A DNA stretch of 60,895 nt from Actinomycetes bacterium (lineage in GTDB: Bacteria > Actinomycetota > Acidimicrobiia > Acidimicrobiales > JAKAVM01): contig JAKAWH010000003.1 in assembly GCA_021817065.1 (NCBI GenBank), positions 1-60,895 of the forward strand. The letters are read 5' to 3'. Position 1 is the stretch's first letter. Each line of letters opens with the position of its first letter. The notes beneath the pieces are model-generated. The model was not told the origin of the DNA. It did no database searches and was given only the letters and a program-made list of their open reading frames with translations. The translations under genes and the position numbers were made by a program. This document shows, in pieces, positions 4,451-60,696 of this stretch.

Positions 4451-5737
4451 TCATCCGACGTGAGGAAGAGCCCCCACCCGGGAGGCGTCAACCCTGTCTC
4501 CGTCCACTTCCACCCCCAGGCCCGTCCCCGCCGGTACCGCGATTTCACCGCCTTCGACACTGAGGGGTGGCGACACCAGGTCCTCCGCGAAGTAAAAATC
4601 CGAGCTGGCCATGTCTCCCGGCAGGGTGAATCCAGGCTGGGAGGCGAGAGCCAGGTTGGCCGCGCGGCCGATCCCCAGTTCGTGCATTCCCCCGCACCAG
4701 GCATCGATCCCGTGCTCCCGGCACACCGCCAGCAGGTCCAGGGCAGCGGTGAGTCCACCCAAACGGGGAGCTTTTAGCGATACAGCCCGGCAAGAGCCCA
4801 GTGTGATCGCCGCCTCCAGGGCATGGACCGAGGTGATCGCTTCGTCGAGGGCCACCGCTGTTGCCAGGAACTCCTGGAGCCGGGCATGTCCCACCAGGTC
4901 GTCATCGCCCAATGGCTGCTCGATGGCCATCAAGCCCAGGCCATCCAGATCGGCCAGCGCCGCCAGATGCGCAGGATCATCGAAGCGGTAGGCCCCGTTG
5001 GCGTCGGCCACCACAATTAGGGCGGGATGTCGTTCCCGAACCGCCCCGACCACCTGGACATCGCATCCGGGAGCAATCTTGATCTTCACCCGCCGGTAAC
5101 CGGCGGCTACGCACTCGTCGACCCGTCGAAGAATAACGCCGAGGTCGTCCTCCGTCCCCAAGGCCGCTCCTGCGGGAACCCGGGGAGCCGGACGAAGAGA
5201 ACCGGTGGGAACCCGGGGAGCCGGACGAAGAGAACCGGTGGGAACCCGGGGAGCCGGACGAAGAGAACCGGTGGGAACCTTGGAGGCGGGGCGCCCTCCT
5301 GCGAGGTCCGCATAACCAGACAGTGCCAGGGCGAGCGGCAGCCCCTCCGCCCGGCACCACAGGTCCCATGCCGCCATCTCCACCGCCGATCGGGCCAGCG
5401 AGTTCCCCTTCACTCGGAGGAGGGCCCGAGCGACGTCGGAAGGGTGCTCCCAGTCGACACCCACCACCAGAGGTGCCAGGTAGTCGTTGATCACCGTGAG
5501 AGCCGAGCCGGGAGTCTCCCCCACGTAGTAGGGATCGACCGGCGTGGGTGCCTCTCCCCATCCTTCCTCACCGCCCAGCCCGACTAAGTGGACGAGCGGA
5601 TGCCTCACCGAGGTGGTGGTGGATGACGAAGACCGGAAGCTCCGACGGAGCGGCACCTCGACCAGGAAAAGGTCGACCTTGGAAATCCTCACCGACCCGG
5701 ACCGGCCAGCTCTCCCCGAAGCGGCCCGGTCGCCCAC
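4451..5737 (-). CDS. menC: o-succinylbenzoate synthase (enolase superfamily) carrying an internal 3x11-aa repeat
   Basis: Enolase-superfamily motifs are present: VKIKIAPG, VADANGAY, AIEQPLGDDD. It lies in the men cluster. The start is uncertain: GTG at 5737, or GTG at 5692 (VRISKVDLFLVEVPL). It contains VPTGSLRPAPR x3. Confidence 0.8.
   Translation of the reverse strand: MGDRAASGRAGRSGSVRISKVDLFLVEVPLRRSFRSSSSTTTSVRHPLVHLVGLGGEEGWGEAPTPVDPYYVGETPGSALTVINDYLAPLVVGVDWEHPSDVARALLRVKGNSLARSAVEMAAWDLWCRAEGLPLALALSGYADLAGGRPASKVPTGSLRPAPRVPTGSLRPAPRVPTGSLRPAPRVPAGAALGTEDDLGVILRRVDECVAAGYRRVKIKIAPGCDVQVVGAVRERHPALIVVADANGAYRFDDPAHLAALADLDGLGLMAIEQPLGDDDLVGHARLQEFLATAVALDEAITSVHALEAAITLGSCRAVSLKAPRLGGLTAALDLLAVCREHGIDAWCGGMHELGIGRAANLALASQPGFTLPGDMASSDFYFAEDLVSPPLSVEGGEIAVPAGTGLGVEVDGDRVDASRVGALPHVG
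5174..5279. repeat. perfect 33-bp tandem repeat, 3.2 copies, in frame inside menC
   Basis: The unit gggaacccggggagccggacgaagagaaccggt occurs at 5174, 5207 and 5240, with a partial copy at 5273-5279. All copies are identical. Confidence 0.95.
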
Positions 5738-5823
5738 ACCGCGCCGAGACGACTAGTCCGGCGGCGAGGAGGGCCCGCCTTCACCGCGCCGAGACGACTA
5801 GTCCGGCGGCGAGAAGGGCCCCG
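5737..5823. repeat. 45-bp-period direct duplication of the menA 3' end
   Basis: caccgcgccgagacgactagtccggcggcgag is present at 5737-5768 and 5782-5813, and the following ~9 nt are also similar. Copy 2 holds the last 10 codons of menA plus its stop. Copy 1 lies in the menA-menC spacer. Confidence 0.9.
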
Positions 5824-6701
5824 AAAGCGATCTGGAACCTCCCGGTCTCCCCGAGCACCGCCACCAGGGACCGGCCCGATGCTCCGGTGAGGACCTGCCT
5901 GACCGGGCCAACTGCGAACACCGAACCTGCGAGGACCAGGAGGGCCCACCCCGCGTCGAAGAGCACCGCCAGGACTGCCACCAGGGCAAACGGAAGCAGG
6001 CAGCAGGCCGCGTACAGAGCCCGGGTACGAGACGCGCCCAACCGGACCGCCAGGGTCGTCTTGCCCGCCCGCGCATCCCCCTCGATGTCGCGCAAGTTGT
6101 TGGTGACCAGAAGGGCGACCGCCAAGAGCCCGACCGCTCCGGAGGCCAGCAGCGACATGACCGAGAACCTGCCCGCCACCACGTACGCGGTCCCGACCGT
6201 CGCCACCACCCCGAAGAAGACGAAGACGGCAAGCTCACCGAAGCCCGCATAGCCGTACGGGTGGGAGCCGCCAGTGTAGAACCATCCCGCAGCGATACAG
6301 AGTATCCCTATGGCGATCAGCCAGGGCGCTCTCCAGGCCGAGAGCGCGATGCCTGCGAGAGAGCCGACCCCGAAGCTGGCCAGAGCGGCGCGCTTGACCG
6401 CGGCTGGAACCGCAAGGCCGGATGCCACCAAGCGCACCGGACCGACCCGGTCGGCGTCGGTCCCCCGGAGCCCGTCGGAATAGTCGTTCGCATAATTGAC
6501 CCCCACCTGCATAGAAAGGGCCACCGCCAGGGCTAGAGCGGTGGCGAGCCAGGAGCTCGCCGACCAGGACGACGGGAACCTGTCGAAAGCGACCGCGGCC
6601 CCCACCACCACCGGCACCACCGCGGCTGGGAGGGTCCGGGGACGGGCACCCGCCACCCACACGGAAACTGGGGTGGTCACGGCCGCCTCGGCCTGCAACA
6701 T
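5781..6701 (-). CDS. menA: 1,4-dihydroxy-2-naphthoate polyprenyltransferase
   Basis: 306 aa polytopic UbiA-family protein with NDYSDGLRGTD (NxxxD motif), located in the men cluster. Confidence 0.88.
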   Translation of the reverse strand: MLQAEAAVTTPVSVWVAGARPRTLPAAVVPVVVGAAVAFDRFPSSWSASSWLATALALAVALSMQVGVNYANDYSDGLRGTDADRVGPVRLVASGLAVPAAVKRAALASFGVGSLAGIALSAWRAPWLIAIGILCIAAGWFYTGGSHPYGYAGFGELAVFVFFGVVATVGTAYVVAGRFSVMSLLASGAVGLLAVALLVTNNLRDIEGDARAGKTTLAVRLGASRTRALYAACCLLPFALVAVLAVLFDAGWALLVLAGSVFAVGPVRQVLTGASGRSLVAVLGETGRFQIAFGALLAAGLVVSAR

Positions 6702-6773
6702 GGTCCCGTGCTCGGCCTCACGGCCGCCTCGGCCTGCAACATGGTCCCGTGCTCGGCCTCACGGCCGCCTCGG
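6677..6773. repeat. perfect 41-bp tandem repeat, 2.4 copies, spanning the menB stop and menA start
   Basis: The unit tcacggccgcctcggcctgcaacatggtcccgtgctcggcc occurs at 6677 and 6718, with a partial copy at 6759-6773. Each full unit holds a TGA, a 16-nt spacer and an ATG (minus strand). Confidence 0.95.
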
Positions 6774-7709: not shown

Positions 7710-8906
7710 GTGCCCCGCCTTGTCGCCCTGGCCATGCCGGGAGGCGATCTCCTGGTCGACAACTTGCGGCGGGTGTGGGACCGTGGCGACGCGGCCTTGG
7801 TCGTCGACATCCGCCTGTCCCCCGCCACCCGGCACGACCTCATAGATGAGCTGGCCGCCAGCACGGTGGTGGACGAGTACGGCTCGGAAACTCCCCTCGG
7901 TGGAGGCCGGTCGGTCGAGGAGGGCGACGCCCTGGTGGTCGCGACCAGCGGCACCACCGGTAAGCCGAAGGGCGCCGTCCTCACCCACCGGGCAATTGCC
8001 CAGCATGCTCGCTCGTCCACTGCACGCCTCATGGTCGACCCTGACCGGGACCGGTGGCTTGCCTGCCTCCCCCTCGCCCACGTGGGAGGACTTTCGGTGG
8101 TCACCCGGGCGCTGGTCACCGGAACACCCCTCACCGTTCTGCCGGGATTCGACCGCGACGCGGTGGAAGTCGCCGCACGGAATGGAGCGAACCTGGTCTC
8201 CCTGGTACCGACTACCCTCGCCCGGATCGAACCGGCGCTCTTCCGGAAGATTCTCCTGGGTGGTTCGACACCTCCCGAGTTGCCCCCTCCCAATGCGGTC
8301 ACCACCTACGGGATGACCGAGTCGGGTGGCGGAGTGGTGTACGACGGGATCCCCTTCGACGGAGTTGAGATCAAGATCACTGGAACCCGGGAGGGGAGCA
8401 GCGGCGAAGAGGGGAGCGGCGGCGGAAAAGGCGCAGGCGAGATCCTCCTGCGCTCGCCTACCCTCGCCCGCTGCTACCGGACTGTTCGGGAAGATCTGCC
8501 GGTGGCTGGCCCAGGTGGCTGGTACGCCACTGGCGACGTCGGCTCGCTGAGCGAAACCGACGGAACCAAAAAGCTCGCCGTTCACGGTCGGGCCGACGAG
8601 ATGATCGTCACCGGTGGCGAGAACGTTTGGCCAGCTCCGATTGAAGCGCTACTTGCCGCGCACCCCGGGATTGCCGACGCTGCCGTCGCCGGCCATCCCG
8701 ATCCGGAATGGGGACAGAAGGTGGTCGCCTACCTCGTCCCGGCCGACCCCACCGCACCCCCCACCATCGACTCGATTCGCAGCTGGGTAAAGGAACGGCT
8801 CTCCCCCTGGGCAGCGCCGCGGGAGATCGTGCTGGCGCGCAAGATTCCCAGGACGGAATCGGGCAAGATCCGAAGGAAGTCCCTGAGCTATCCGACTCCC
8901 CCATGA
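7710..8906 (+). CDS. menE: o-succinylbenzoate-CoA ligase
   Basis: 398 aa short adenylate-forming enzyme with TSGTTGKPKGAV, in the men cluster. GTG start. It contains a Gly/Ser/Glu-rich insert encoded by an imperfect 18-bp duplication at 8391-8427. Confidence 0.8.
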   Translation: MPRLVALAMPGGDLLVDNLRRVWDRGDAALVVDIRLSPATRHDLIDELAASTVVDEYGSETPLGGGRSVEEGDALVVATSGTTGKPKGAVLTHRAIAQHARSSTARLMVDPDRDRWLACLPLAHVGGLSVVTRALVTGTPLTVLPGFDRDAVEVAARNGANLVSLVPTTLARIEPALFRKILLGGSTPPELPPPNAVTTYGMTESGGGVVYDGIPFDGVEIKITGTREGSSGEEGSGGGKGAGEILLRSPTLARCYRTVREDLPVAGPGGWYATGDVGSLSETDGTKKLAVHGRADEMIVTGGENVWPAPIEALLAAHPGIADAAVAGHPDPEWGQKVVAYLVPADPTAPPTIDSIRSWVKERLSPWAAPREIVLARKIPRTESGKIRRKSLSYPTPP

Positions 8907-19972: not shown

Positions 19973-21916
19973 CTATCCTCCTGATCCCACGTTGGCCGCG
20001 TCTCCGAAGGCCCAGACTTCCCCGGCGCGGTCGGCCAGCCAGTACCCACCCCCATCGGGGGTAAATGCGACGGCCACGATTGGACTGACCAATGTCACCG
20101 CGTTGGAGCCCCCCGGCGGCGACGAAGGATTCACCTGACCCATGGAGCCCCAATACAGGGCATCGCCGTAGGTGTAGACATCGCCCGAACTGTCGACCAC
20201 CAGGTAACCCTTGCCGCTCGGTGTGGCTGCCATCCCCACCGTCGGAGCCAGTACCTGCATGGCATTGCTCCCCCCCGGCGAAACGGTGGGATTAACCTGG
20301 CCCAAAGAGCCCTCGAAAAGAGCGTCGCCATAGGTGAAGATGCCCCCGTCGGAAGCGACCAGCCAGTACCCACCCCCGTCGGGAGTGGCGGCCATGCCGA
20401 CAATCGGCTTGGCCAGGGGCAATGCACCGGCCGACCCGAAGAAGCCCGCATCGCCGAAAGTGAAGACGCCCCCGTCGGAAGCCACTTCCCAGTAACCCCT
20501 CCCGTCGGGAGTCGCTGCCATGCCGACAATCGGCTTGGCCAGGTTGACCGCGTTGGACCCACCCGGCGGTGCGGATGGATCGAGCTGGCTGGGGCCCCCG
20601 AAGTAGCCGGCCCCACCGAAGGTATAGAGATCACCGAAGCCGTCGACCAGCCAGTAGCCGCCTCCGCTGGGAGTGGATGCCATTCCTACCACAGCTCCCC
20701 CGAGTGTTATCGACGATGCATCCCCGAATGGCTGGGCGTCGCCCTGATTGGCGACCGCGCCCGCTGCTGAAGCAAGCCAGTAGCCAGCGCCGTCGGGGGT
20801 GGACCGAATGGAGACCACCGGGGAGGAGGCCACGGCCACCCCCGCCGGACCGCATCCGGTGGCGATGGAGGAACCAGCGACTCCCGAGCCCAGGTCGATG
20901 GGGGTGACGCCACAGGAGAATCCGTCCGCCACGTAGGCGGTCGAGCCGTCCGGAGTGATTGCGATACCCCAAGGGCCCGGGCCCACCGTGATGGGGGATC
21001 CCGGAGTGTTGGTCGCCAGGTTGATCGGGGTGACCGTACCCGGGGTGCTCGAGGACCCCGCATCGATGCTCGCATTGCGATCGGTGACATACGCCGTGCT
21101 CCCGTCGGGGGTTATTGCGATGTCCATCGGGGTGGTCCCCACCGCGATGGGGCTACCCGGCGTGTTGGTCGCCAGGTCGATCGGGGTAACCGTGTTGCCG
21201 TCGGCGTTGGCCACGTAAGCCGTCCGCCCGTCGGGGGTTATGGCGATCGCCAGGGGGAACGCACCCACCGGAATCGACGCACCCACCGCCTCGGTTGCGA
21301 GATCGATGGGAGTGACCAGGTTCTTGTCGGCATCGGTCACGTAGGCGGTCCGCCCGTCGGGGGTAATGGCGATCCCAGCAGGTCCCGACGGCACCGGTAT
21401 CGGCCAGCCGGCCCGGCCGGTGGCGAGATCGATGGGGCTGACCGTGTTGTCGGTGTTGTTGGCGACGTAGGCAGTCCTCCCGTCGGGGGTAATGGCGATC
21501 GCCCACGGGCCGAACCCGACGGTGATCGGTGCACCCGCCACACCTGTCGCCAGGTTGATCGGGGTGACCGTGTTCCCGACCGCCGCCGACGACGGGGACC
21601 GGTTGGTCCCGTAGTCGGTCACGTATGCGGTCCTTCCGTCGGGGGTGACGGCGATCCCGAACGGACCGCCACCGGTGTTCTGAATGACCGGCCCGGGGGA
21701 ATTGCTGGCCGAGTCGATTGGGGTGACTCCCCCGCTGAAATCGTCGGTGACATAAACGGTGGGCGAGGGAAGACCATGCGACGTGGAAGTTGCGCGGGGG
21801 GCCGGCAGCGCGCCGGCGAGCAGTGGTCCGCCGCCCGCGAGGTACAGGACCGGCCAACCCACAATCGCAGCGGTCAGGAAGGCCACCAGCCGCAACAGGC
21901 GCACGCGCACGCTCAC
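19973..21916 (-). CDS. membrane-anchored or secreted protein with two repeat propeller modules
   Basis: The N-terminus has a hydrophobic anchor (LLRLVAFLTAAIVGWPVLYLAGG). About 7 repeats of ITPDGRTAYV(T/A)(D/N)...VTPIDLATN...I.VG..P.GIA follow (YVTN-type blades). Then come 6 repeats of VGMAATPDG.GYW.V.SDGG.FTFGDA.F.GS. The GTG at 21916 overlaps the asnB stop (GTGA). Confidence 0.75.
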   Translation of the reverse strand: MSVRVRLLRLVAFLTAAIVGWPVLYLAGGGPLLAGALPAPRATSTSHGLPSPTVYVTDDFSGGVTPIDSASNSPGPVIQNTGGGPFGIAVTPDGRTAYVTDYGTNRSPSSAAVGNTVTPINLATGVAGAPITVGFGPWAIAITPDGRTAYVANNTDNTVSPIDLATGRAGWPIPVPSGPAGIAITPDGRTAYVTDADKNLVTPIDLATEAVGASIPVGAFPLAIAITPDGRTAYVANADGNTVTPIDLATNTPGSPIAVGTTPMDIAITPDGSTAYVTDRNASIDAGSSSTPGTVTPINLATNTPGSPITVGPGPWGIAITPDGSTAYVADGFSCGVTPIDLGSGVAGSSIATGCGPAGVAVASSPVVSIRSTPDGAGYWLASAAGAVANQGDAQPFGDASSITLGGAVVGMASTPSGGGYWLVDGFGDLYTFGGAGYFGGPSQLDPSAPPGGSNAVNLAKPIVGMAATPDGRGYWEVASDGGVFTFGDAGFFGSAGALPLAKPIVGMAATPDGGGYWLVASDGGIFTYGDALFEGSLGQVNPTVSPGGSNAMQVLAPTVGMAATPSGKGYLVVDSSGDVYTYGDALYWGSMGQVNPSSPPGGSNAVTLVSPIVAVAFTPDGGGYWLADRAGEVWAFGDAANVGSGG

Positions 21917-23751
21917 CGATGCCCCAGTGCCACCGGAGCATCCACGAAGCGGCGCATCCACAGCTCGGCAACCAGCGCCCTCCAGAAGATCAAGCCGTCA
22001 CCGGGTTTGCCTGCTTGCCACGCGTCGAACTCGGCGACCAGCCGCTTGGGATCGAACACCCCCCGCTCGGCGGTCCTCGAGTCGGCGAAGATCCGGAGGA
22101 TCGAATCGGCGCGATCCTTCATCCACCCGACCTCCGGATTGGTAAAGCCGATCTTGGACCTGCGGGTTCGGTTCTTCTCAGGCATCCTCCCCTTCATCGC
22201 CTGCCGGTAAACGTAACGGTTCCATCCTCGCTTGATCTTCTGGTCGATCGGGAGCGCGAAAATGAACTCGACAAGCTCGTGATCCAGAAATGGAACCCGC
22301 GACTCGATGGAAAAAGCCATAGAGTTCTTGTCCTCATAGCGCAGCAGGTTCGGCGTCGAATATCGCGTCACATCGTCGGCGAGGCGCCGGTTCAGGTTCC
22401 GGCTCGCCGAGTAGTCGAATGCGGCCAGGGCGGATGGCGATGAGGCCAGAACCGATCGCATGGAAAGAGTGTCGGGAGCTCCCGGCCGCCGGGTTCGCCA
22501 CACCTCAGCGAAATACTTTGAGTAGAGGTCCCACCCACGAACGGTTTCCCGGACCGCCGAGCCGATGCGGTGCTGAGAGAGAGCTGAGGTGAGGTAGGCA
22601 TAGAAATACGGGATGTATCCGGCCAAGAGCTCGTCTCCCCCGTTGCCCGATAGAATCACCTTGACGTTGCCCTTCGCGATGCGATATACAGAGTAATAGG
22701 CGTACGGCGCGGAGGATATGGTGGGTTCTTCCTGGTACCAGATCCACTCGTCGATCTCGCTCCAGAACTCCTCGACTGAGGGATACGCGTAATGGGGCAC
22801 GGAGCCCACGTACCGCTCGACTTCGTGAATGTAATCGCTTTCGTCGATCGTCTGCCCAGGATAGAGCGCCGAGAAGGTGTGAAGCGTTCCACGAGTGTGG
22901 GTATCGGCACCGGTGCCCATCAGGGCAGCCATCACCGACGAGACCCCGCTTGAGTCAAGCCCACCCGAAAGCGACACCCCTACCGCCACGTCGGAAATCA
23001 TGTGGCGGCGGATCACCCGAGTGAATAGGTCGGCAAAAGCCTCCGCATAGGACGCGTCGGATAGATGGCCGGAAAATTCGGTGTTGACCTCCGGGTACCA
23101 GTACCGCTGGATCCGCCTTATCCCCGACGGCCCCACGATCATCCAATGGCCAGGCTGCAGGCGCTTGATCCCCCGGAAGAAAGTGTCCTCCCGGTCGTCG
23201 TGGACCCGGTACAGGAGAAAGCGGTGAAGGACGTCTAGATCAGGTGCGCGCTCCACGTCCGGGTCCTGCAAGAGCGCCTTGATCTCGGAGGCGAAAGCTA
23301 CCTTGCTCCCGCGGGCACGGTAGTACAGGGGCTTGATTCCAAGCCGGTCCCGGGCGATGAACAACTCGCGTCTTGCCGGGTCGGCGATGGCGAAGGCGAA
23401 CATTCCGGTCAGGCGGGATACGCAGGCGGTTCCCCACTCTTCGTAGGCCTTGAGGATAGTCTCGGTGTCCGAATGGTCCGAGGCAAATCGGTGCCCCTTG
23501 GATGCCAGTTCCGCCCTCAGCTCAGGACTGTTGTACAGCTCGCCGTTGAAGACGATGCAGCAGGCACTCTCCTTGGAGTAGAGGGGTTGCTCGCCGCCTT
23601 CGATGTCGACGATGGAAAGCCGCCTCATCCCGATGGAGAAATCGGCACCCACCTCGATGCCCCACGAATCGGGACCGCGGTGCTCGATTGAGGTGAGCAT
23701 CCTCTCCAGAAGATCACGATCGGTACCGGTAACGCCGGCGATGCCGCACAC
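21913..23751 (-). CDS. asnB: asparagine synthase (glutamine-hydrolysing) family amidotransferase
   Basis: A GTG at 23751 followed by Cys (V-CGIAGV) gives the Ntn catalytic Cys2. The PP-loop SLSGGLDSS is present. 612 aa. The longer track ORF was trimmed. Confidence 0.85.
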   Translation of the reverse strand: MCGIAGVTGTDRDLLERMLTSIEHRGPDSWGIEVGADFSIGMRRLSIVDIEGGEQPLYSKESACCIVFNGELYNSPELRAELASKGHRFASDHSDTETILKAYEEWGTACVSRLTGMFAFAIADPARRELFIARDRLGIKPLYYRARGSKVAFASEIKALLQDPDVERAPDLDVLHRFLLYRVHDDREDTFFRGIKRLQPGHWMIVGPSGIRRIQRYWYPEVNTEFSGHLSDASYAEAFADLFTRVIRRHMISDVAVGVSLSGGLDSSGVSSVMAALMGTGADTHTRGTLHTFSALYPGQTIDESDYIHEVERYVGSVPHYAYPSVEEFWSEIDEWIWYQEEPTISSAPYAYYSVYRIAKGNVKVILSGNGGDELLAGYIPYFYAYLTSALSQHRIGSAVRETVRGWDLYSKYFAEVWRTRRPGAPDTLSMRSVLASSPSALAAFDYSASRNLNRRLADDVTRYSTPNLLRYEDKNSMAFSIESRVPFLDHELVEFIFALPIDQKIKRGWNRYVYRQAMKGRMPEKNRTRRSKIGFTNPEVGWMKDRADSILRIFADSRTAERGVFDPKRLVAEFDAWQAGKPGDGLIFWRALVAELWMRRFVDAPVALGHR

Positions 23752-26067: not shown

Positions 26068-26879
26068 CGGCGGGCCACCAGACTGCCGCTCTTACACGCC
26101 ACGCACAGCCGCGCCTGGGGAATCGCCTTGAGCCGAGCCTTCGGAATGGGCTGGTAGCAACTCTCGCAGGCTCCGTACACCTTGTCCTCGATCTTTGCCA
26201 ATGCGTGGTCGATCTCCTCGACCTCGCCGAGGGCCTGGGCAGACAGCATCAGGTCAACTTCGCGGTCGATGTTCCCGGTTCCCCCCTCGCCGGACTCCTC
26301 GTCGAACTGGGCTTCCCCAGGCTCCTTCTCTTCGGCAAGGGCGTCAGCCTCTTCCCGGAGGCGTTGGGCCTGCTCGAGATAGGTCAACCGCTCCGCCTCC
26401 AGGAGGAGCCTCTGCTCGGCGAGGAACTTGTCGTCCACACCGGGAACTCCCTCCCCCTTGCGGGGAGGGGTTGCCTTCTCCACCCCACCGGTCACCAGGA
26501 TGGCCGGCCTGCTCGGGGTGGGGGCCTTCTCTTCCTTTGCCGGCAGGGTCACGGCCAGGGAAGCTGCCGTGCTAGCCGGTTCCTTGGTGGCCGGAGACTT
26601 CTTCGCCGGTTCCTTGGTAGCTGCAGCCTTCTTGGCCTTCGAGGTGGCGGGGGACTTCTTCGCCGGTTCCTTGATGGCGGGGGCCTTCTTGGCCTTCGAG
26701 GTGGCGGGGGACTTCTTCGCCGGTTCCTTGGTGGCGGGGGCCTTCTTGGCCGTCGAGGTGGCGGGGGACTTCTTCGCCGGTTCCTTGGTGGCGGGGGCCT
26801 GTGCCTTGGTGGTGGAGACGCCCTTGGACCCCGTGGCCTTGCCAGTCCGATCCTGTCTCTTGGTTCCGAAGATCGGCAT
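26064..26879 (-). CDS. DksA/TraR C4 zinc-finger protein with a Lys/Ala/Pro-rich histone-H1-like N-terminal repeat tail
   Basis: The C-terminus has a coiled coil plus CESCYQPIPKARLKAIPQARLCVACK (CxxC-N17-CxxC). The N-terminal ~110 aa consists of KEPAKKSPATSKAKKAPA(I/T) repeats. Confidence 0.8.
   Translation of the reverse strand: MPIFGTKRQDRTGKATGSKGVSTTKAQAPATKEPAKKSPATSTAKKAPATKEPAKKSPATSKAKKAPAIKEPAKKSPATSKAKKAAATKEPAKKSPATKEPASTAASLAVTLPAKEEKAPTPSRPAILVTGGVEKATPPRKGEGVPGVDDKFLAEQRLLLEAERLTYLEQAQRLREEADALAEEKEPGEAQFDEESGEGGTGNIDREVDLMLSAQALGEVEEIDHALAKIEDKVYGACESCYQPIPKARLKAIPQARLCVACKSGSLVARR
26584..26798. repeat. 57-bp tandem repeat, about 3.8 copies, in frame (19-aa KEPAKKSPATSKAKKAPAx units)
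   Basis: Units start at 26584, 26641, 26698 and 26755. The two central copies differ at only 2 positions. Confidence 0.9.
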
Positions 26880-34811: not shown

Positions 34812-35732
34812 CTACGGGGACGCAGTCGGCTGGGATGGGAGTGTCAGGTCGACCCGGGTCATGCCTTTCAGGTCGGCCTCGGTGACCAGAGTCGCCAGAG
34901 CATCGTACTTGGCGCCAAGCTCGATCGGGGGTCCGAGCAGGACCTGGAGGGTACTTCCCCAGGTCAATTTGACCTCGCTGCCCGGCAAGACGGTGATTCC
35001 CGTGACACCTGAGTTCGGTGCAGCGGCATTGGGCTCCAGGCTGGACGGTAGCGACCCAGCAACCGTGAGGGCCGGTCGCGCCGAGCTTCGGAGCCTTCTC
35101 CCCGGAACCGGCGCGGTGAAACCGTTCATGACCGGCAGTCTCTCTCCCCCCGCCGGACCGAGCACCCTCCCGGTGGCGTCGACGAGCTCGGTCACACCCG
35201 CCTTCCCAGCCACTTTGGCTACCGGTGTGCGCTCGACCACTTCTATTGACATGGTCCAGGGCCAGTGTCGCACCACCGTGGCTGATGCAATCCACGGAAG
35301 AGAATCCAGCCTCCGGGCGATCGAAGCGGGATCGGCATCGATCATCGGGGTGGCGCCGATGCGGATGCCGGCCACCTGGGCGACCAGGCCTTCCGGTTCA
35401 TGACTGTTCCCGGTGACCTCCAGGTGCTTGACCGAAAGAAGCGAGGAATGGAAGACGAATAGGGCGAACACCGCAGCGAGAGCGGTCCAGACAACCCCGA
35501 TCAGGATGCGGAGACGGTGGCGACCCTCTTGCCGAGTCACTTCCACCCGACGTTGGCGAATCCGCGGGTTGATGGGAACGGCCTGGCGGGTCCTGGTGCC
35601 TTCTTTCCGGGCGTCCTTCCCCCGGGTCCTGGTGCCTTCTTTCCGGGCGTCCTTCCCCCGGGTCCTGGTGCCTTCTTTCCGGGCGTCCTTCCCCCGGGTC
35701 CGGGTTCGCGCCCGGTCAGTTCGTACCAACAT
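34812..35732 (-). CDS. ftsQ: cell division protein FtsQ/DivIB with a repeat-expanded N-terminal tail
   Basis: Arg-rich tail, single TM (LRILIGVVWTALAAVFALFVF) and a POTRA-like segment (VKHLEVTGN). The position between murB and ftsZ fits. RGKDARKEGTRT occurs 3 times. Confidence 0.8.
   Translation of the reverse strand: MLVRTDRARTRTRGKDARKEGTRTRGKDARKEGTRTRGKDARKEGTRTRQAVPINPRIRQRRVEVTRQEGRHRLRILIGVVWTALAAVFALFVFHSSLLSVKHLEVTGNSHEPEGLVAQVAGIRIGATPMIDADPASIARRLDSLPWIASATVVRHWPWTMSIEVVERTPVAKVAGKAGVTELVDATGRVLGPAGGERLPVMNGFTAPVPGRRLRSSARPALTVAGSLPSSLEPNAAAPNSGVTGITVLPGSEVKLTWGSTLQVLLGPPIELGAKYDALATLVTEADLKGMTRVDLTLPSQPTASP
35588..35701. repeat. perfect 36-bp tandem repeat, 3.2 copies, in frame in the ftsQ 5' end
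   Basis: The unit gggtcctggtgccttctttccgggcgtccttccccc occurs at 35588, 35624 and 35660, with a partial copy at 35696-35701. Confidence 0.95.
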
Positions 35733-38264: not shown

Positions 38265-39568
38265 CGCTCCACCAGCTCGGCAATCGCCTGGGCGGCCCCA
38301 GGGCGCGCCAGAGCTCGCGCGTTCCTTCCCATGCATTGGGTCCGGGCGGGATCGGTAGCAAGGTCGGTGATCACCGCGGCAAGCTCTTCGCCAGTGCACG
38401 CGCCGTCGGGCAGGACGACCGCCGCCCCCCCCTGTTCGAGCACCCGGGCATTGGCCCCCTGGTGATCGCCCGGCGAACCGGGGAGCGGTACCAGCAACGC
38501 CGCCCGTGAGGCGGCGCACACCTCGGCGACGGTGGTCGCCCCCGCCCGGGAAACAATAAGGTCGGCCGCAGCCAGAGCGAGATCCATCCGATCCTCGTAC
38601 TCGACCGCTTGGTAGAGGAGATGCCCGCGGGGAGGGCCTGCCTGCCCGACCGGATCCTGGGCTGGCTCGCCGTGGCTGATATCGGAGCCGACCGGATCCT
38701 GGGCTGGCTCGCCGTGGCTGATATCGGAGCCGACCGGATCCTGGGCTGGCTCGCCGTGGCTGATATCGGAGCCGACCGGATCCTGGGCTGGCTCGCCGTG
38801 GCTGATATCGGAGCCGACCGCTCCAAACACCTCCGAGATTGCCCGTTGGGTTCCTGGCCAGTCGCGCCGGCCGAACACGTGCCGAACGGCGATGTCGCTC
38901 CGACCCGACAGGGCACGGCACATTCCCGTCGTTGCCTCGTTGATCCGCCGGGCCCCCAGCGAACCACCGAATGCCAGTACGGTGAATCGGTCAGCGGGGA
39001 GTCCCAATTCCTCCCTCGCCCGCGCCCGAGCATTCGGATCCTCGCCGATCGCGGTGATGGCCGGCCTGACCGGGTTGCCGGTCACCACTTCGTTGCGCAA
39101 CCCCGTCCCGGGAAAAGCCACCGCACACCCTGCGGCGAATCGAGAGGCCAGGCGGTTGGATATTCCCGCCACCGCGTTGGACTCGGCGACCACAACCGGG
39201 ATCCGGCACAGCCGAGCGGCGAGGGCGGCAGGGAATCCCGCATAGCCACCCACGGTTACCACAGCACGGGGGCGGTGTCGGAGCAGGGACACTACCGAGA
39301 GGACGAAAGCCCAGCCGATACCCGCCACAGCACCCAGGACCGCTGGCGAGAGGCGGCGCGGAATGCCCCTGCCGGGCATCAGCTCCAGCGGGAACTTTGC
39401 CCGGGGCACCAGAGTGGCTTCCAGTCCCCGCCGGGAGCCGACGAAGCCAATCGAATCCCGGGAGTAGCCCCGCTCGACCAGGGCCTCGGCAATGGACAGG
39501 GCAGGCATAACGTGCCCGGCCGTCCCCCCCCCTGCGACGACCAGGCTCCAACGTCCTCCGGCCACCAC
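38249..39568 (-). CDS. murG: MurG glycosyltransferase (lipid II synthesis) with a 4x14-aa insertion
   Basis: GTG at 39568 lies after GAGGAAA and 5 nt after the ftsW stop. GGGTAGHVMPA G-loop and VSRAGATTVAE are present. GSDISHGEPAQDPV x4 is inserted before the C-domain helix. Confidence 0.85.
   Translation of the reverse strand: MVAGGRWSLVVAGGGTAGHVMPALSIAEALVERGYSRDSIGFVGSRRGLEATLVPRAKFPLELMPGRGIPRRLSPAVLGAVAGIGWAFVLSVVSLLRHRPRAVVTVGGYAGFPAALAARLCRIPVVVAESNAVAGISNRLASRFAAGCAVAFPGTGLRNEVVTGNPVRPAITAIGEDPNARARAREELGLPADRFTVLAFGGSLGARRINEATTGMCRALSGRSDIAVRHVFGRRDWPGTQRAISEVFGAVGSDISHGEPAQDPVGSDISHGEPAQDPVGSDISHGEPAQDPVGSDISHGEPAQDPVGQAGPPRGHLLYQAVEYEDRMDLALAAADLIVSRAGATTVAEVCAASRAALLVPLPGSPGDHQGANARVLEQGGAAVVLPDGACTGEELAAVITDLATDPARTQCMGRNARALARPGAAQAIAELVERCART
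38646..38820. repeat. perfect 42-bp tandem repeat, 4.2 copies, in frame inside murG
   Basis: The unit ccgaccggatcctgggctggctcgccgtggctgatatcggag occurs at 38646, 38688, 38730 and 38772, with a partial copy at 38814-38820. Confidence 0.95.
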
Positions 39569-44798: not shown

Positions 44799-44875
44799 GG
44801 AAGTTCACTCACCTGTCACATCCGCACCGAGCGAACGGCGCCGATCCCCGGGCACGGAGGGAGGCAGGGACCCTT

Positions 44876-46795
44876 TCAGCCACCAGTCACATCCGAGCTG
44901 AGCGGAACCGTGGTGGAGGAGGACCCCGTGGCGGGAGGAGCAGCCGGTGCCTGAAGAGTGACGGTCCCTCCGTTAACGTCCGCCGGAGGCGGGATGGCAA
45001 GCACCCGGAGTGAATACCGTGCGATCTGGGCGAACACCGGCGCTGCCACCGAACCGCCGTAAATGGATGTCTTCGGGTCCTGGAGGGACACCACGATGGT
45101 CAGGGCCGGTGCCTGCGCCGGGACGAACCCGACAAAAGTCGCCATGAACTGGCCCGCGAGGTACCCCGGCCCCTTCGGGTTGGGGATCTGGGCAGTGCCG
45201 GTCTTGCCGGCCACCGTGTACCCGGGGACCACCGCTTCAGCTCCGGTCCCCGCAGAAACCACCTGCTCCAGCATGCCTCGCAATTCCCCGGCGATGGCGG
45301 AGCTCAGGACCCGGTGGGTTGGGGCCGGTGCCACTGCAACCCGGTCGCCCTTCGAGTTCATGGTGGCCTCGACCAGGCGCGGCGGGACAAAGACGCCGCC
45401 ATTGGCGATGACGTTGTATGCATCGGCGATCTGCAAAGGAGTCACTGCCGCGTCCTGGCCGATCGGATCGGACCCGATGGTCGATCCGTCCCACTGGGAG
45501 AGGGGGATCAATATCCCGTTGCTCTCGCCCGGGAAGGCCAGGCCGCTGGGCTCACCGAAGCCGAACAGGCGCATGTACCGGTCGACCCGGGCTGCTCCGA
45601 GCTTCTGGGCGATCTCGATCGTCCCGATGTTGGAGGACTGAGCCAGAATCTCGGTGGCGCTGAGGGTCTCGGTCCCATGGCTCTCGGCATCGTGGAACGC
45701 ATAGCCACCAACCTCGAGCTGGGGAGGCACGGTGAACATCGTGGTTGGATCGATGATTCCCTCGTTCAATGCTCCGGCGAAGGTGGTTACCTTCATCACC
45801 GATCCCGGCTCGAAGACAGCGTCGGTGGCCAGGTTATAGCCCGCCTCCCTCGGAGTCGCCGCCGGCGCCGTGCCAGCCTCGAGGTTAGCCATGGCCAGGA
45901 TTCCCCCGGAATGGGAATCGAGCACCACCACGGTCCCTGCCTTGGCACCGCTGATCTGGATCTCGCTCGCCAGGGCCGCCTCCGCCTCGTACTGGATTGA
46001 GGTGTCCAGGGTGAGCAGCACGCCTGTACCCGGGCGGGCCGCCCGAACCAGCTGGGTGCTACCCGGGATCTGGCTCCCTCCCGGTCCTTCCTCCTCGAAC
46101 ATCTGGCCCGCCCGGCCGGCCAGCTCACCCTGGAGCTGGGCTTCCAGACCGGAGAGGCCGGTGCCGTCCACGCCCACCAAACCCAGCAGAGGCAACGCCA
46201 GAGCACCGTTGGGGTCGAATCTCTTCGGTTCGGTTAAGAACCCGATGCCCGCCAGGTGGAGGGCCTTCGCCGCGTCTCCGGCGTGATTGCCTATCTCGCG
46301 GGCTAGGTAGACGAAACCGACGTTCTCGCGCAGTTCGCGTTCGAGCTGCGCCTCGGGAACTCCCAACACGGGAGCCAACTGGGTCGCCTCGCCAGCCGGA
46401 TCGCTGATCTGGTGGGGGTCCGCGTAGACGGTGGTCTCGGGTATCGACGTGGCAAGAAGGTTCCCGTTCCGGTCGAATATCTCGCCCCGGGGTGCGGCAA
46501 TTGTGACAAGGTGCTCGAGCTGCGAGTTGTCATAGGCGGCATATTTTGCCGAAGAGGTGATCTGGACGTTGATCAGGCGCGCCCCGATCAACAGGAAGAG
46601 AAGGAAGAACACGACGAGGAGCACCCCGAGGCGCCGCTTCGGTTGCCCATTCCCCGCTGCGTTTTTTCGGTGACGGGACCTGCCTGAAGGGAATTCCGCA
46701 CTATGCGTGTGCAGCCGACCACTCGGATTCGGTCCGCGGAAATGCTGGACCGACCGGGAGCCGGGCTCGGAAGCCCCGAGACGAGGGGGCCTCAC
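44876..46795 (-). CDS. ftsI: class B penicillin-binding protein (FtsI-type transpeptidase)
   Basis: SxxK (SVMK), SSN and KTGT motifs are present, with an N-terminal TM. The GTG at 46795 overlaps the ftsL stop (GTGA). The upstream part of the track ORF was discarded. Confidence 0.85.
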   Translation of the reverse strand: MRPPRLGASEPGSRSVQHFRGPNPSGRLHTHSAEFPSGRSRHRKNAAGNGQPKRRLGVLLVVFFLLFLLIGARLINVQITSSAKYAAYDNSQLEHLVTIAAPRGEIFDRNGNLLATSIPETTVYADPHQISDPAGEATQLAPVLGVPEAQLERELRENVGFVYLAREIGNHAGDAAKALHLAGIGFLTEPKRFDPNGALALPLLGLVGVDGTGLSGLEAQLQGELAGRAGQMFEEEGPGGSQIPGSTQLVRAARPGTGVLLTLDTSIQYEAEAALASEIQISGAKAGTVVVLDSHSGGILAMANLEAGTAPAATPREAGYNLATDAVFEPGSVMKVTTFAGALNEGIIDPTTMFTVPPQLEVGGYAFHDAESHGTETLSATEILAQSSNIGTIEIAQKLGAARVDRYMRLFGFGEPSGLAFPGESNGILIPLSQWDGSTIGSDPIGQDAAVTPLQIADAYNVIANGGVFVPPRLVEATMNSKGDRVAVAPAPTHRVLSSAIAGELRGMLEQVVSAGTGAEAVVPGYTVAGKTGTAQIPNPKGPGYLAGQFMATFVGFVPAQAPALTIVVSLQDPKTSIYGGSVAAPVFAQIARYSLRVLAIPPPADVNGGTVTLQAPAAPPATGSSSTTVPLSSDVTGG

Positions 46796-47406
46796 CGTCC
46801 CGGAGCCCGTGCCCTGGCGGATCCTGATGGGGAAGTGGACGTCGATGAGGGCGACGGCTGTACACCCGCCGCCGCGCGCGGAGTGACAGGCGACATGGCA
46901 ACCGGAACTAGGTAGGTCACCTGTGACGGAGTCACCATGCCTAGGGCCTCCGCGGAGGCGATGATCTTCTGCGGTGCCTCGAGTTGGGCGAGCCGGAATT
47001 GGAGTGTGGTCTGACGGGCCTGGGCGTTCGCTACCTGCTCTTGCATGGCGTCGATACGGAACTGCTTCTGGTCGATGACGACGTGAGCCACCACCACCAT
47101 GAAGATGCCGGCCACCGCTACTGCAATCGCTGCGGTCCGCACCGCCGTCGACTGCCACGGCGAGCGGGAAACCACCTCGGCGGGCCGGCGAGCGGTGGAC
47201 CGAGCAGGAACCCGAATCGCGGGAGTACCCCTTTTCTTGCGAGTCGAAGGTTCGATAACCCGCATCCGGCTCTCACGTACCGCGCGCTCTTGTCGACCGG
47301 CCCCAGCCAATACCGCGCTCTCTCGTTGAGCGGCCCCAGCCAATACCGCGCGCTCTCGTTGAGCGGCCCCAGCCCGCGACGGCGCCGACGAGGCCGCAGG
47401 AGTCAC
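46792..47406 (-). CDS. ftsL: FtsL-like division protein (Arg-rich tail, TM, coiled coil, Pro/Ser tail)
   Basis: Position between rsmH and ftsI. TM segment AAIAVAVAGIFMVVVAHVVI followed by a heptad-like QKQFRIDAMQEQVANAQARQTTLQFRLAQLE. The GTG at 47406 overlaps the rsmH stop. Confidence 0.7.
   Translation of the reverse strand: MTPAASSAPSRAGAAQRERAVLAGAAQRESAVLAGAGRQERAVRESRMRVIEPSTRKKRGTPAIRVPARSTARRPAEVVSRSPWQSTAVRTAAIAVAVAGIFMVVVAHVVIDQKQFRIDAMQEQVANAQARQTTLQFRLAQLEAPQKIIASAEALGMVTPSQVTYLVPVAMSPVTPRAAAGVQPSPSSTSTSPSGSARARAPGR
47265..47374. repeat. 33-bp tandem repeat in the ftsL 5' end (2.3 near-perfect copies plus one degenerate copy)
   Basis: cggccccagccaataccgcgc[t/g]ctctcgttgag occurs at 47298 and 47331 with 1 mismatch. 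A partial copy lies at 47364-47374 and a degenerate copy at 47265-47297. It encodes AGAAQRE(R/S)AVL. Confidence 0.9.
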
Positions 47407-49304: not shown

Positions 49305-50075
49305 TCAGCTGGGAAGGCTGGAGACCAGCGCTTCCCACAGAAGCGTCTCCACGTCGCTGGGGTAAGCGTCGCTGGCAGGGCCGTTTGCGATCAGCGGGCC
49401 GATCCCGATCGCTGACCCTGCTAGATGCGCAACTAGATCCCGACCCTCAGGGGCGTCCAGAGCGAGTAGCCGCACCAGGTCCTCGGGTCGCCAGGCAATC
49501 AGCGCTGCGCAGTGGAAGATAGCGCCGTCCCGGCTGCGCCGCTGGCAGACACCCACCACCTTGCACCCACGCACCTCCACTTCGCCTGCCGCGGTCCCCG
49601 CGAAACACGCCAACCGGGACCAGCCGCTGCAAGCCGGCGCTGCAACTGGCACCATCGAGGCAGGTACGCCGGCGCGCTCCAGTGCGTGCCTCCACACCTC
49701 CCCGACCCAGTGGCTAGATCGCACGACATCGTCATCCCACAAGGGGTCGTGCCGCGGGATAAAAAGATCCACCCAGAAGACATCCCCGGGCACCACGAGC
49801 ACTGCGCCACCGCCGCTCCGCCGGCGCACCACCTCGATCGACGCCGCCGCCACGGCCGCGACATCGACCACCGAGCACGGCTGGGTCGAACCGAGGACCA
49901 GGGCAGGTTTGCTGGGACGGCACCACGTCACCAGTCGCTCGCCCTTCGCCTGAAAAGGGCGTGCGTGTAGCTCGGCGGGCGTGGCAACCCGCGCTTCCGC
50001 TCGCCATCGGTCGCCGCCTGTCTCCGCCCCGCCCCCGACAACCAGCGCCTCCGCTCTCCATCGATCGCCCACCAC
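49305..50075 (-). CDS. biotin/lipoate A/B protein ligase (LplA/LipB) family protein
   Basis: VVRRRSGGGAVLV and VRGCKVVGVCQRR (catalytic-Lys motif) parallel LplA RRxSGGGAV and GRKxSGSA. The start is uncertain (GTG at 50075 or 50072 at the HNH stop). The N-terminus has a duplicated GDRWRAEA segment. Confidence 0.65.
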   Translation of the reverse strand: MVGDRWRAEALVVGGGAETGGDRWRAEARVATPAELHARPFQAKGERLVTWCRPSKPALVLGSTQPCSVVDVAAVAAASIEVVRRRSGGGAVLVVPGDVFWVDLFIPRHDPLWDDDVVRSSHWVGEVWRHALERAGVPASMVPVAAPACSGWSRLACFAGTAAGEVEVRGCKVVGVCQRRSRDGAIFHCAALIAWRPEDLVRLLALDAPEGRDLVAHLAGSAIGIGPLIANGPASDAYPSDVETLLWEALVSSLPS

Positions 50076-50713
50076 TAGTCGATGTATGACGGCACCGCCA
50101 CCTTCACCGGTCCGTGGCAACCGTTGGAACCGGGGAGCGGAATATCGAGCATCGCCGCGTGCCCGCTGCCGTCGACCGGGGAGACCGAATGTCCATTGCC
50201 GTCGACCGGGAACACTCCGTGCCCGTTGCCGAGATAGGGCACCCATTCCTCCCGGATCGGCGAACCGTGCACGAGAATCCAGATCCGTTCCCGGGGCTGA
50301 AAAGGCTGGCGCGCGAGCTTCAATCCCGCCTCGTGGGGTAGGTGGTCCTCCTTCTTCGCGTTGCACCGCCTGCACGCGGCGACCACGTTCTCCCACTCGT
50401 GCCGGCCTCCGCGGCTCCGGGGAATCACGTGATCGATGTTCTCAGCCCCACAGCCGCAATACTGGCAGACCCCCCCGTCCCGAAAGAAGATCGCCCTACG
50501 ATTGAGAGCCATCCTTCTCTGGTACGGGACCCGGACATATCGCGAGAGACGGACCACCGACGGTTCCGGCACTGCCAGTCGGGCCGAGTGAAAAGCCCGC
50601 CCGGTCGTGTGCACCAGTTCCGCCTTCTCCCCCATCACCAGCGACAGTGCTCGCCTGGAAGCAACGACGCACAGTGGCTCGTACGTCATGTTCAAGACGA
50701 GCGCCTGACTCAT
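50075..50713 (-). CDS. HNH endonuclease with a His/Gly-rich C-terminal repeat tail
   Basis: CQYCG...DHVIPRSRGGRHEWENVVAACRRCNAKK is an HNH core. ATG at 50713 (MSQALVLNMTYEPL). The tail is GNGHGVFPVD / GNGHSVSPVD / GSGHAAMLDI. Confidence 0.8.
   Translation of the reverse strand: MSQALVLNMTYEPLCVVASRRALSLVMGEKAELVHTTGRAFHSARLAVPEPSVVRLSRYVRVPYQRRMALNRRAIFFRDGGVCQYCGCGAENIDHVIPRSRGGRHEWENVVAACRRCNAKKEDHLPHEAGLKLARQPFQPRERIWILVHGSPIREEWVPYLGNGHGVFPVDGNGHSVSPVDGSGHAAMLDIPLPGSNGCHGPVKVAVPSYID
50141..50230. repeat. degenerate 30-bp tandem repeat (3 copies) in the HNH gene 3' end
   Basis: Units at 50141, 50171 and 50201. The last two share gtcgaccggg...gcc ends. Roughly 70-80% identity by eye. Confidence 0.7.
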
Positions 50714-58053: not shown

Positions 58054-58135
58054 TGTCAAGGCGGGAAGATGTGCCGGCAGGTATACCGGTGGCCAGAGCG
58101 GCCCGGCTGCGGTGCAATCAAGAGCACAAAGCAGC

Positions 58136-58151
58136 AGGAACGAATGTTTGC
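58136..58151. promoter_or_regulatory. weaker SOS-box-like site
   Basis: AGGAACGAATGTTTGC: the GAAC half is intact and the second half is GTTT. Confidence 0.4.
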
Positions 58152-58178
58152 GTATCGGTCTGGACGGGAGTAGTCTGC

Positions 58179-58194
58179 GGGAACTCACGTTCGA
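58179..58194. promoter_or_regulatory. SOS box (LexA operator) upstream of lexA
   Basis: GGGAACTCACGTTCGA has a perfect GAAC-N4-GTTC core. It lies about 96 nt upstream of the lexA ATG. Confidence 0.75.
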
Positions 58195-58289
58195 TATGTA
58201 CACGAAGGGTGTGACAACCCACGAGAGCCCGCAGACCGGATGACCCGGGACGCACTCTCCCGGGTCGCCGCAGCCAAGAGGAAGGTCTC

Positions 58290-58946: not shown

Positions 58947-59033
58947 CCCGGGGTCCTACAAGCCACCGGACCACGCCACCTTCTGGGCTCGCCGCCGCCC
59001 GTGAATTGCACGTCTGGGGGGATGGAATCGTGC

Positions 59034-59513: not shown

Positions 59514-59563
59514 CGCCTCTCCTCTCCCGCTTCTCTACCTGTTCAGAATTCCTCGCGCCAACG

Positions 59564-60679
59564 CTACTCGGATGGCAAGCCGATGAGGTTCTGTCCGGGG
59601 ACTGGCAACCCGGATGGAATGCCGGCGAGACACGCCAGGACGCGGTAAGCGTGATCCAGCTCCCGGGCTGAAACCTTCTCGTTCGGGGAATGTGCGAGAG
59701 AGGAGTCCCCGGGGCCGAAGTTGAGGGCTGGAATCCCCATCTCTGCGAATAGTGCGACGTCGGTCCATCCGAGCTTGGCCTTGGGAGGCTCCGCCACTAT
59801 CTCCGCCAACCTCCTGCACACCGGGTGGTTCAGGCGTGGCAGAGCCCCTCCGACCGCGTCGACAAGTGTGAACCGATCCCCTCCCCCGAAGTCGACCGCG
59901 GGCGACAACAACTCGACCAGAAGTGCCGATGCTTCGTCCACCGACCGATCGGGGGCAAAGCGGTGGTTGACGACAAGGCGCGCCTGGTCGGGGACGACGT
60001 TGCCGGCTACTCCTCCCTCCACCCACACAGCCTGAAGAGATTCCCGGTACTCGCACCCCTCGATGGTCGGCTTCCGCCCCTCGTACGCTTCGACCAGCGC
60101 GATCACCCGCCCCAAGCGGTGGATCGCGTTCCGGCCCATCCAGGGGCGGGCGGTGTGGGCCCGCGTGCCGGAGACGACCACTTCAGCCCGCAGAGTCCCT
60201 TGGCAACCTGCTTCGATCCCTCCGGCAGTGGGCTCGCACAGGATCGCGGTATCACAAGCGAGGAGGTCGGGGCGCTGCCGGCTGAGGATCCGCAGGGCGT
60301 TGTCGGCACGGTCGATTTCCTCGCATGCGTAGAAGACCATGCTCAGATCGAGCTCGGTGGGCTCCCCGGCAACTGCCAGTGCGAGCATCACCGCGATGCC
60401 TCCCTTCATGTCGACTGCCCCGACCCCCGAGCAGGTGTTCCCTTCGGTGACCGACGGGAAGTTCGCGCCGGGCGGCACGGTATCGAGGTGCCCGGCGACC
60501 ACGACCCGGTGCGGTCTTCCCAGATCGGTCCGGGCTACCACCGTGTCGCCGACTCTCTCGACGGACAGCCACGGAACCCCACTGAGTTCCTCCTCCACTC
60601 GATCGGCGATCTGCTGCTCAGACCGGCTGACCGAGGGGATGTCTACCAACTCGGCCGTGAGAGCCAATAGGTCTCTCAC
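59564..60679 (-). CDS. dapE: succinyl-diaminopimelate desuccinylase (M20 peptidase)
   Basis: LLALTAELVDIPSVS, GHLDTVP and DMKGG. Start is the GTG at 60679 (clear of dapD) or the GTG at 60706 (14-nt overlap). Confidence 0.8.
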   Translation of the reverse strand: MRDLLALTAELVDIPSVSRSEQQIADRVEEELSGVPWLSVERVGDTVVARTDLGRPHRVVVAGHLDTVPPGANFPSVTEGNTCSGVGAVDMKGGIAVMLALAVAGEPTELDLSMVFYACEEIDRADNALRILSRQRPDLLACDTAILCEPTAGGIEAGCQGTLRAEVVVSGTRAHTARPWMGRNAIHRLGRVIALVEAYEGRKPTIEGCEYRESLQAVWVEGGVAGNVVPDQARLVVNHRFAPDRSVDEASALLVELLSPAVDFGGGDRFTLVDAVGGALPRLNHPVCRRLAEIVAEPPKAKLGWTDVALFAEMGIPALNFGPGDSSLAHSPNEKVSARELDHAYRVLACLAGIPSGLPVPGQNLIGLPSE

Positions 60680-60696
60680 GAATGAAGGTCTCTCAC
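60669..60696. repeat. 11-bp direct repeat (17-bp period) on the dapD stop / dapE start
   Basis: aggtctctcac occurs at 60669-60679 and 60686-60696. On the minus strand, one copy carries the dapD TGA and the other a candidate dapE GTG. Confidence 0.8.

Follow-up and report, generated by a model that had tools for sequence, protein, structure and literature searches.

How does one stretch of a bacterial chromosome come to hold tandem duplications in one core gene after another? The question is raised by a 60,895-bp contig of an uncultured Acidimicrobiales metagenome-assembled genome (MAG) at NCBI, analysed here whole and called the window, in which an earlier note had described dense, perfect or nearly perfect short duplications in division, cell-wall and menaquinone genes and on the junctions between genes. 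We conclude that these arrays are likely to be independent, locally generated minisatellite, or variable-number tandem repeat (VNTR), loci, which arose by slippage-type duplication and were filtered by selection. The evidence comes from their reality and whole-unit polymorphism, from their position and reading frame, and from the short direct repeats at their ends.

The host is an uncultured Acidimicrobiales bacterium rather than a classical cultivated actinobacterium. The nearest MurG proteins in the GTDB species representatives belonged to Acidimicrobiales MAGs, at 40–56% identity, and the scan of these representatives yielded no genome of the window species, the top MurG match being 56% identical. 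In a collection of ~15 billion proteins, the next MurG relative was 54–61% identical. About a dozen further assemblies contain the species itself (four MAGs from NCBI, five MEGAHIT assemblies from ENA and five from Logan), and the JGI metagenomes, scanned with the MurB-like protein for further alleles, gave relatives at 45–56% identity only.

Arrays and their copy-number alleles

Arrays were detected in the window with Tandem Repeats Finder (TRF; period of at least 10, at least 90% matches), which returned seven, and a strong array was defined by a TRF score of at least 150, with identical settings for the window, the relatives, Escherichia coli and the flanks. The six strongest lie in the genes for a MenC-like protein, a DksA-like protein, FtsQ, MurG and FtsL and at the menB/menA junction, and six or seven weaker ones accompany them (Table 1). 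The array-bearing genes are all on the minus strand except menE. The arrays are real and far beyond chance: 100 dinucleotide-preserving shuffles of the window gave none at a score of at least 150 and a mean of 0.04 at a score of at least 50. The dense duplications of the earlier note were thereby recovered, its weaker items by repeat search and alignment; absent from its list were the 71-bp duplication between a penicillin-binding protein (PBP) gene and murF and a 15-bp duplication of the LplA-like C-terminal segment, which is present in loci L050, L052 and L068 of the same species.

Table 1. Tandem duplications in the window and just beyond its start, with the alleles found among same-species assemblies
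Feature	Position	Strand	Repeat	Alleles
MenC-like (MR_MLE family)	5174–5279	−	33 bp ×3.2, 100% match, TRF	1.2, 2.2, 3.2 copies
menA end / menC start	5689–5820	−	45-bp duplication of menA 3′ end at 5731–5820, 93%	
menB stop / menA start	6677–6773	−	41 bp ×2.4, 100% match, TRF	1.4, 2.4 copies
MenE (AMP-binding enzyme)	8389–8424	+	18 bp ×2, imperfect	1 or 2 copies
DksA/TraR zinc-finger protein	26586–26800	−	57 bp ×3.8, 94% match, TRF	1.8, 2.8, 3.7, 3.8 copies
yggS stop codon	32151–32183	−	13 bp ×2.5, 95% match, TRF	
FtsQ	35587–35705	−	36 bp ×3.3, 98% match, TRF	1.3, 2.3, 3.3 copies
MurG	38646–38820	−	42 bp ×4.2, 100% match, TRF	1.2, 2.2, 4.2 copies
PBP end / murF start	44804–44904	−	71-bp period, degenerate (80%), PBP 3′ end copied into spacer	
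FtsL	47278–47374	−	33 bp ×2.9, 92% match, TRF	
LplA-like C-terminal tail	block 49349–49380 (site about 49350–49351)	−	single copy in window	with or without 15 bp
LplA-like N-terminus	49985–50069	−	54-bp period, 87% over 31 nt, GDRWRAEA ×2	
HNH protein C-terminal tail	50155–50231	−	30 bp ×2.5, degenerate, 70–77%	
dapD stop / dapE start	60669–60696	−	GTGAGAGACCT twice at 17-bp period	
Flavin reductase stop codon	L043 19214–19365, also L064 13609–13759 (~1.6 kb beyond window start)		67 bp ×2.3, 97%	1.3 (L042, L045) or 2.3 copies

We then compared the same-species assemblies with the window by blastn. Outside the arrays they form two haplogroups, at 0–0.03% and 0.12–0.31% divergence from the window. 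The flanks of the polymorphic arrays are 99.7–100% identical between assemblies, and the differences consist of exact whole units. The length classes of the protein clusters agree with these alleles, with 397, 411 and 439 aa for MurG, 282, 294 and 306 aa for FtsQ, and 233, 252 and 271 aa for the DksA-like protein. The proposal of a high-rate duplication process filtered by selection was borne out in that even assemblies at 0–0.03% divergence in single-nucleotide polymorphisms (SNPs) differ by whole units at most young arrays. Indeed, the near-clonal assemblies showed 8 SNPs in 96.5 kb against differing array alleles in 10 of the 13 locus comparisons, so that array change per locus is roughly 10^4 times the per-base rate. 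Other arrays were constant, namely the yggS array in all nine covering assemblies, the FtsL array in all eight and, likewise, the more degenerate arrays in every assembly. Among the TRF-scored arrays, the units are 94–100% identical to one another where the locus is polymorphic and 77–95% where it is fixed. This behaviour, polymorphic when identical and fixed when diverged, is the VNTR life cycle as expected.

Further observations concern the same assemblies. Two patches of the men region, 5680–5810 and 8486–8590, are SNP-dense between the haplogroups and hold roughly one-third of its mismatches, the remaining alignment being mostly near-identical; the one in MenE further differs by a 9-bp indel. 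They resemble short tracts imported by recombination, or segments that are hypervariable locally. Two toxin-antitoxin-like pairs, one a PIN protein with a VapB-like partner and the other a FitA-like RHH protein with a small open reading frame (ORF), occupy the interval (window 3500–4800; L042 13187–14578) that separates the men genes from a hydrolase gene. Contig ends recur at two sites where no repeat can be seen: two Logan contigs stop at 42412, and a MEGAHIT and a Logan contig both stop in divIVA, at 30501/30502. In the NCBI assembly GCA_027388385.1 (L001 3962–5266), codon 144 of the essential gene ftsW is changed from GAG to TAG (window 40449) and the gene is called as two fragments; an error in sequencing or assembly, heterogeneity within the population and a genuine pseudogene are all conceivable.

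Reading frame and position of the arrays

Arrays within genes and arrays on junctions follow different length rules, as the earlier note had stated. All nine in-gene periods (33, 18, 57, 36, 42, 33, 30, 54 and 15) are multiples of 3 (p ~5e-5 under a 1/3 null), and the repeat peptides are hydrophilic throughout. The periods of 41, 13 and 17 bp, which are not divisible by 3, sit on stop/start junctions.

The in-gene arrays occupy tolerant, non-conserved tails or loops. The MenC-like array encodes RPA(S/P)(K/R)VPTGSL repeats (RPASKVPTGSL) and falls in the linker between the Pfam domains MR_MLE_N (23–136) and MR_MLE_C (204–414), and the MenE duplication, a single copy in L045 and L046, encodes a Gly/Ser/Glu-rich loop. 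A Lys/Pro/Ala-rich N-terminal tail of KKAPATKEPAKKSPATSKA-like peptide repeats is encoded by the DksA-like array. FtsQ carries TRTRGKDARKEG at residues 10–45 of its N-terminal cytoplasmic tail, FtsL a LAGAAQRERAV-like peptide at residues 11–43 of its N-terminal tail, and MurG carries VGSDISHGEPAQDP at residues 251–306, in a variable loop of the C-terminal domain. The MurG insert maps between residues 222 and 245 of the Pseudomonas aeruginosa structure 3S2U, a loop of variable length. In the AlphaFold model of MurG (mean predicted local distance difference test, pLDDT, 86; predicted template modelling score, pTM, 0.83), residues 259–309 are coil with a pLDDT below 50, and the insert is thus modelled as a disordered loop in an otherwise confident fold.

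Comparison with 33 Acidimicrobiales relatives gave the same picture. Their MurG proteins are without the insert, and their FtsQ and FtsL proteins align only downstream of the repeat-bearing tails. Since the inserts are absent from the orthologues of all 33, they are specific to this lineage, a point that the earlier note had raised for alignment. Its description of the affected genes as normally length-conserved is overstated: the sites hit are tails and loops whose length varies in relatives too, and these relatives carry arrays of their own.

A further set of repeats, with a 126-bp period (20322–21574, in a minus-strand gene at 19973–21961), was considered as part of the pattern and rejected. 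Its copies are 70–85% identical and encode the blades of a beta-propeller protein with Pfam YNCE, SGL and NHL matches; they are old protein repeats, not VNTRs. Among the repeats found, only these blades are ancient protein-domain repeats. The arrays are not of that kind, as the MurG, FtsQ and FtsL proteins of relatives are without the inserts and the copies are 92–100% identical.

Overlaps of 4 nt between genes are common in this operon-rich region, and four duplications sit on such GTGA overlaps. At the menB/menA junction, each 41-bp unit, present once or twice, forms a mini-ORF of 14 aa that runs from one GTGA to the next, and the second haplogroup carries at the same GTGA an unrelated 44-bp insert with a 15-aa mini-ORF (L042 10874–10917). 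Both inserts are flanked by a direct repeat of the target, of 15 nt for the 41-bp insert and 9 nt for the 44-bp insert. In Smith-Waterman alignments with the 600 bp to either side, neither insert scored above the median of the shuffles. At the menA/menC junction, a 96-nt mini-ORF (5689–5784) begins with a GTG that overlaps the menA TGA and ends with a TGA that overlaps the menC GTG; this 31-aa mini-ORF contains the 45-bp duplication, has a GTGA-to-GTGA spacing of 92 nt and is present in all haplotypes. The dapD/dapE motif of 11 nt is weak as a repeat, yet it lies exactly on the stop/start junction and forms a 6-aa mini-ORF from GTGA to GTGA.

The spacings of these four GTGA-overlap duplications (41, 44, 92 and 17 nt) are all 2 mod 3, and each therefore leaves an open mini-ORF from the upstream stop to the downstream start. 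Four of four at this residue (p ~0.012 under a 1/3 null) is suggestive only. From the geometry, the mini-ORFs may be translated, which would keep translational coupling between the neighbouring genes. The remaining junction duplications, at yggS (13 bp), the PBP gene (71 bp) and the flavin reductase gene (67 bp), take in the upstream stop codon, and both adjoining proteins are unaltered. Of the leads that this locus offers, the most interesting are the mini-ORF geometry of the junctions and the unexplained pair of inserts at menB/menA.

Density and comparison with known repeat systems

To place the window among its relatives, we counted strong arrays in several samples. The window (61 kb) holds six, or 9.85 per 100 kb, compared with 10 in the dcw loci of the 33 Acidimicrobiales relatives (604 kb; 1.65 per 100 kb), six in the six long-read (MFD) loci among these 33 (126 kb; about 4.8 per 100 kb) and none in the dcw region of E. 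coli K-12 (50 kb). Longer same-species contigs provided 17.8 kb flanking the window, the only sample free of bias from the choice of window, with one strong array (about 5.6 per 100 kb). At the relatives' rate the window count has a Poisson p of 6e-4, which is post hoc. The unusual density that had been claimed is accordingly real as an excess and moderate within the order, the window having about 6 times the density of all relatives and about twice that of the long-read ones.

Relatives carry arrays of their own in the tails of PBP, FtsW and RsmH and at the YggS start, and repeat-bearing tails of division proteins seem common in the order. Young arrays were seen in L024, L030, L032 and L034; that of L030 is 48 bp ×2.5 with 100% matches, that of L034 is 48 bp ×2.5 in the FtsW N-terminus, and others lie in or next to PBP or at the YggS start. 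A survey of 119 bacterial genomes put the median at 0–3 satellites per Mb and found more than 4 per Mb in only 18 species (PMC6749651). By its criterion of at least four repeats, applied by eye and not with the survey's program, the window has ~2 in 61 kb, or ~33 per Mb. The window is clearly repeat-rich, at the upper end of an order-wide tendency and not a singular anomaly. A literature search on tandem repeats in Acidimicrobiia found nothing relevant, and one for the run and assembly accessions, aimed at where the samples came from, likewise returned nothing.

VNTR or minisatellite loci are familiar in bacteria, where they are used in multiple-locus VNTR analysis (MLVA) typing. The arrays belong to this known kind and are unusually dense, with population evidence of turnover. 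They share with it the head-to-tail arrangement of units of 10–100 bp at unique loci (here 13–57 bp, with 92–100% matches), the whole-unit copy differences between near-identical strains with conserved flanks, and the predominance of periods divisible by 3 in genes for amino-acid repeats. Such periods prevail among prokaryotic satellites in general (Subirana & Messeguer 2019, PMC6749651). The differences are the higher density, the location in core division, cell-wall and menaquinone genes, and the host, an uncultured and barely sampled Acidimicrobiales lineage.

Mycobacterial interspersed repetitive units (MIRUs) are the closest parallel for the junctions: they lie between co-directional genes, and the small ORF of each unit is coupled to the start of the next gene at −4 nt (PMC12548453). 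The same unit ORF at −4 nt is seen here at menB/menA (41- and 44-bp units), menA/menC and dapD/dapE, and both systems show tandem units of about 40–50 bp at co-directional junctions with polymorphic copy number. However, MIRUs are a dispersed family with shared sequence, whereas each unit here is unique to its locus in the ~79 kb of this genome that was covered, and most arrays here are inside genes. Contingency simple sequence repeats (SSRs) of Haemophilus and Neisseria have units of 1–8 bp and switch genes on and off by frameshift. The arrays resemble them as hypermutable, slippage-driven tracts and are not SSRs, since the units are 13–67 bp, in frame or on junctions, and there is no switching. 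Actinobacterial nucleoid-associated proteins bear Lys/Pro/Ala-rich basic tails, and the KKAPATKEPAKKSPATSKA tail of the DksA-like protein has the same composition and is repetitive, a likeness confined to that locus; unlike those tails, its repeat is young at the DNA level and variable among strains.

Origin of the arrays

The units bear no relation to one another. A unit-against-unit blastn-short search found no similarity beyond 8 nt, and a search of the units against the window, its flanks and 40 related loci (~79 kb of this genome) found no second copy outside the arrays. As the earlier note had held from the lack of shared sequence, a single mobile or dispersed element is excluded as the source of all arrays, the units being unrelated and, in the DNA covered, unique to their loci. 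The partial copies at the ends of four young arrays measure 7, 7, 11 and 15 nt, compared with ~0.3 nt expected by chance, and in the shortest alleles these terminal copies are the short direct repeats that flank one unit. They are the signature of a microhomology-primed first duplication. A role for hairpins or other structure in slippage was rejected: two-unit stretches of seven arrays, folded as single-stranded DNA, gave z-scores from −1.84 to +0.42 and no signal.

We propose that an array would start when replication slippage or unequal sister-strand exchange between direct repeats of 7–15 nt, lying 13–67 bp apart, produces a tandem duplication. As long as the copies are identical, whole units would be gained and lost far faster than point mutations build up; once the copies diverge, the array would freeze and decay. 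Selection would pass in-frame arrays, with periods that are multiples of 3, in disordered tails and surface loops, and it would pass arrays that span a stop and a start, where the upstream protein is still ended by the first stop. At GTGA-overlap pairs a period of 2 mod 3 would pass, each unit then being a small ORF from the previous stop to the next start that keeps translational coupling. Slippage is thus the presumed molecular event, and the inserts themselves would be neutral.

Several points weigh against this account. The unit sequences, in their hairpins or shared motifs, point to no specific slippage trigger. The menB/menA insert DNA resembles nothing nearby, and a simple local duplication leaves its source unexplained. 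About 79 kb of the genome is covered, the window was picked as dense, and the flanking 17.8 kb has one strong array. Moreover, the copy numbers rest on short-read assemblies, in which arrays may have been collapsed or, close to the k-mer limit, cut short; the MurG array, the longest perfect one at 175 bp, is just under the k=141 resolving length (141+42), and GCA_027388385.1 is at the minimum copy number at every locus, which fits a divergent strain or a collapsing assembly. These last points would also fit arrays or copy-number differences that were produced by de Bruijn graph assemblers, through loops collapsed or mis-traversed, and are absent from the cells. Only metagenome assemblies enter the comparison, MEGAHIT k141 contigs for the most part, and the Logan k=31 contigs break at the ftsQ array. 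However, these contigs end exactly 30 nt into the 36-bp array (35616), as a real repeat in the reads would cause, and tandem repeats get collapsed by assemblers, not created. Multi-copy alleles are shared by independent assemblies (FtsQ 3.3 in two, MenC 3.2 together with 41 bp ×2.4 in two, and the 271-aa DksA-like allele of 3.7–3.8 copies in three or more), and most alleles are below k=141 in length, hence unambiguously resolved. In three assemblies the MurG allele of 1.2 copies goes with SNPs 38474 and 39229, whereas neither accompanies the 2.2-copy allele, and the DksA-like alleles differ in internal unit variants and unit order and therefore are not truncations of one sequence. We consider an assembly origin highly improbable, and the exact copy numbers, that of MurG (4.2, 175 bp) above all, provisional.

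The two inserts at menB/menA could instead be small mobile insertions, at least the 41-bp and 44-bp ones being MIRU-like elements that insert at start codons. Two unrelated inserts occur at one GTGA junction in two haplogroups, direct repeats of the target surround them, the ORF within each is coupled to both of its neighbours at −4 nt, neither is like the surrounding 1.2 kb, and this architecture is that described for MIRUs (PMC12548453). On the other hand, no second copy of either insert was found in the window, the flanks or the 40 related loci, which is a weak test in ~79 kb of genome, and every other array is plainly local coding sequence that has been duplicated; mobile insertion is very unlikely in our judgement. 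An adaptive role is also unlikely. Under it, gains and losses of units in the FtsQ, FtsL, MurG, MenC and DksA-like tails and loops would themselves tune interactions or expression, like contingency loci, and the arrays would be maintained for it. In its favour, several alleles exist side by side in near-clonal backgrounds, relatives have independently gained arrays of their own in tails of division proteins of this class, and the junction arrays keep a geometry compatible with coupling. Against it, the arrays affect housekeeping enzymes of the cytoplasm or cytoplasmic tails, for which rapid variation has no obvious use, each locus encodes a different repeat peptide, on/off switching is impossible for arrays that stay in frame, and older arrays decay and become fixed, as neutral passengers would.

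Independent VNTR loci that turn over locally have consequences for work on this species. The arrays account for breaks in contigs and for genes that differ in length between MAGs of the same species, and the loci are ready markers for strain tracking in metagenomes. The near-zero point-mutation background in this uncultured population provides a natural rate measurement of tandem-repeat turnover, and the alleles give a tolerance map of the parts of MurG, FtsQ, FtsL and MenC that accept insertions of 11–56 residues. The GTGA-overlap duplications suggest a simple local route to MIRU-like arrays of coupled mini-ORFs. A broader idea, which we hold to be speculative and rather doubtful, is that in this lineage, perhaps throughout the order, microhomology-primed tandem duplication is intrinsically more frequent owing to some peculiarity of replication or repair. 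Minisatellite birth and turnover would then be a main way in which loops and tails are added even to essential proteins, and junctions would likewise be reshaped into chains of coupled mini-ORFs. If true, this would give MIRU-like structures a local, non-mobile origin.

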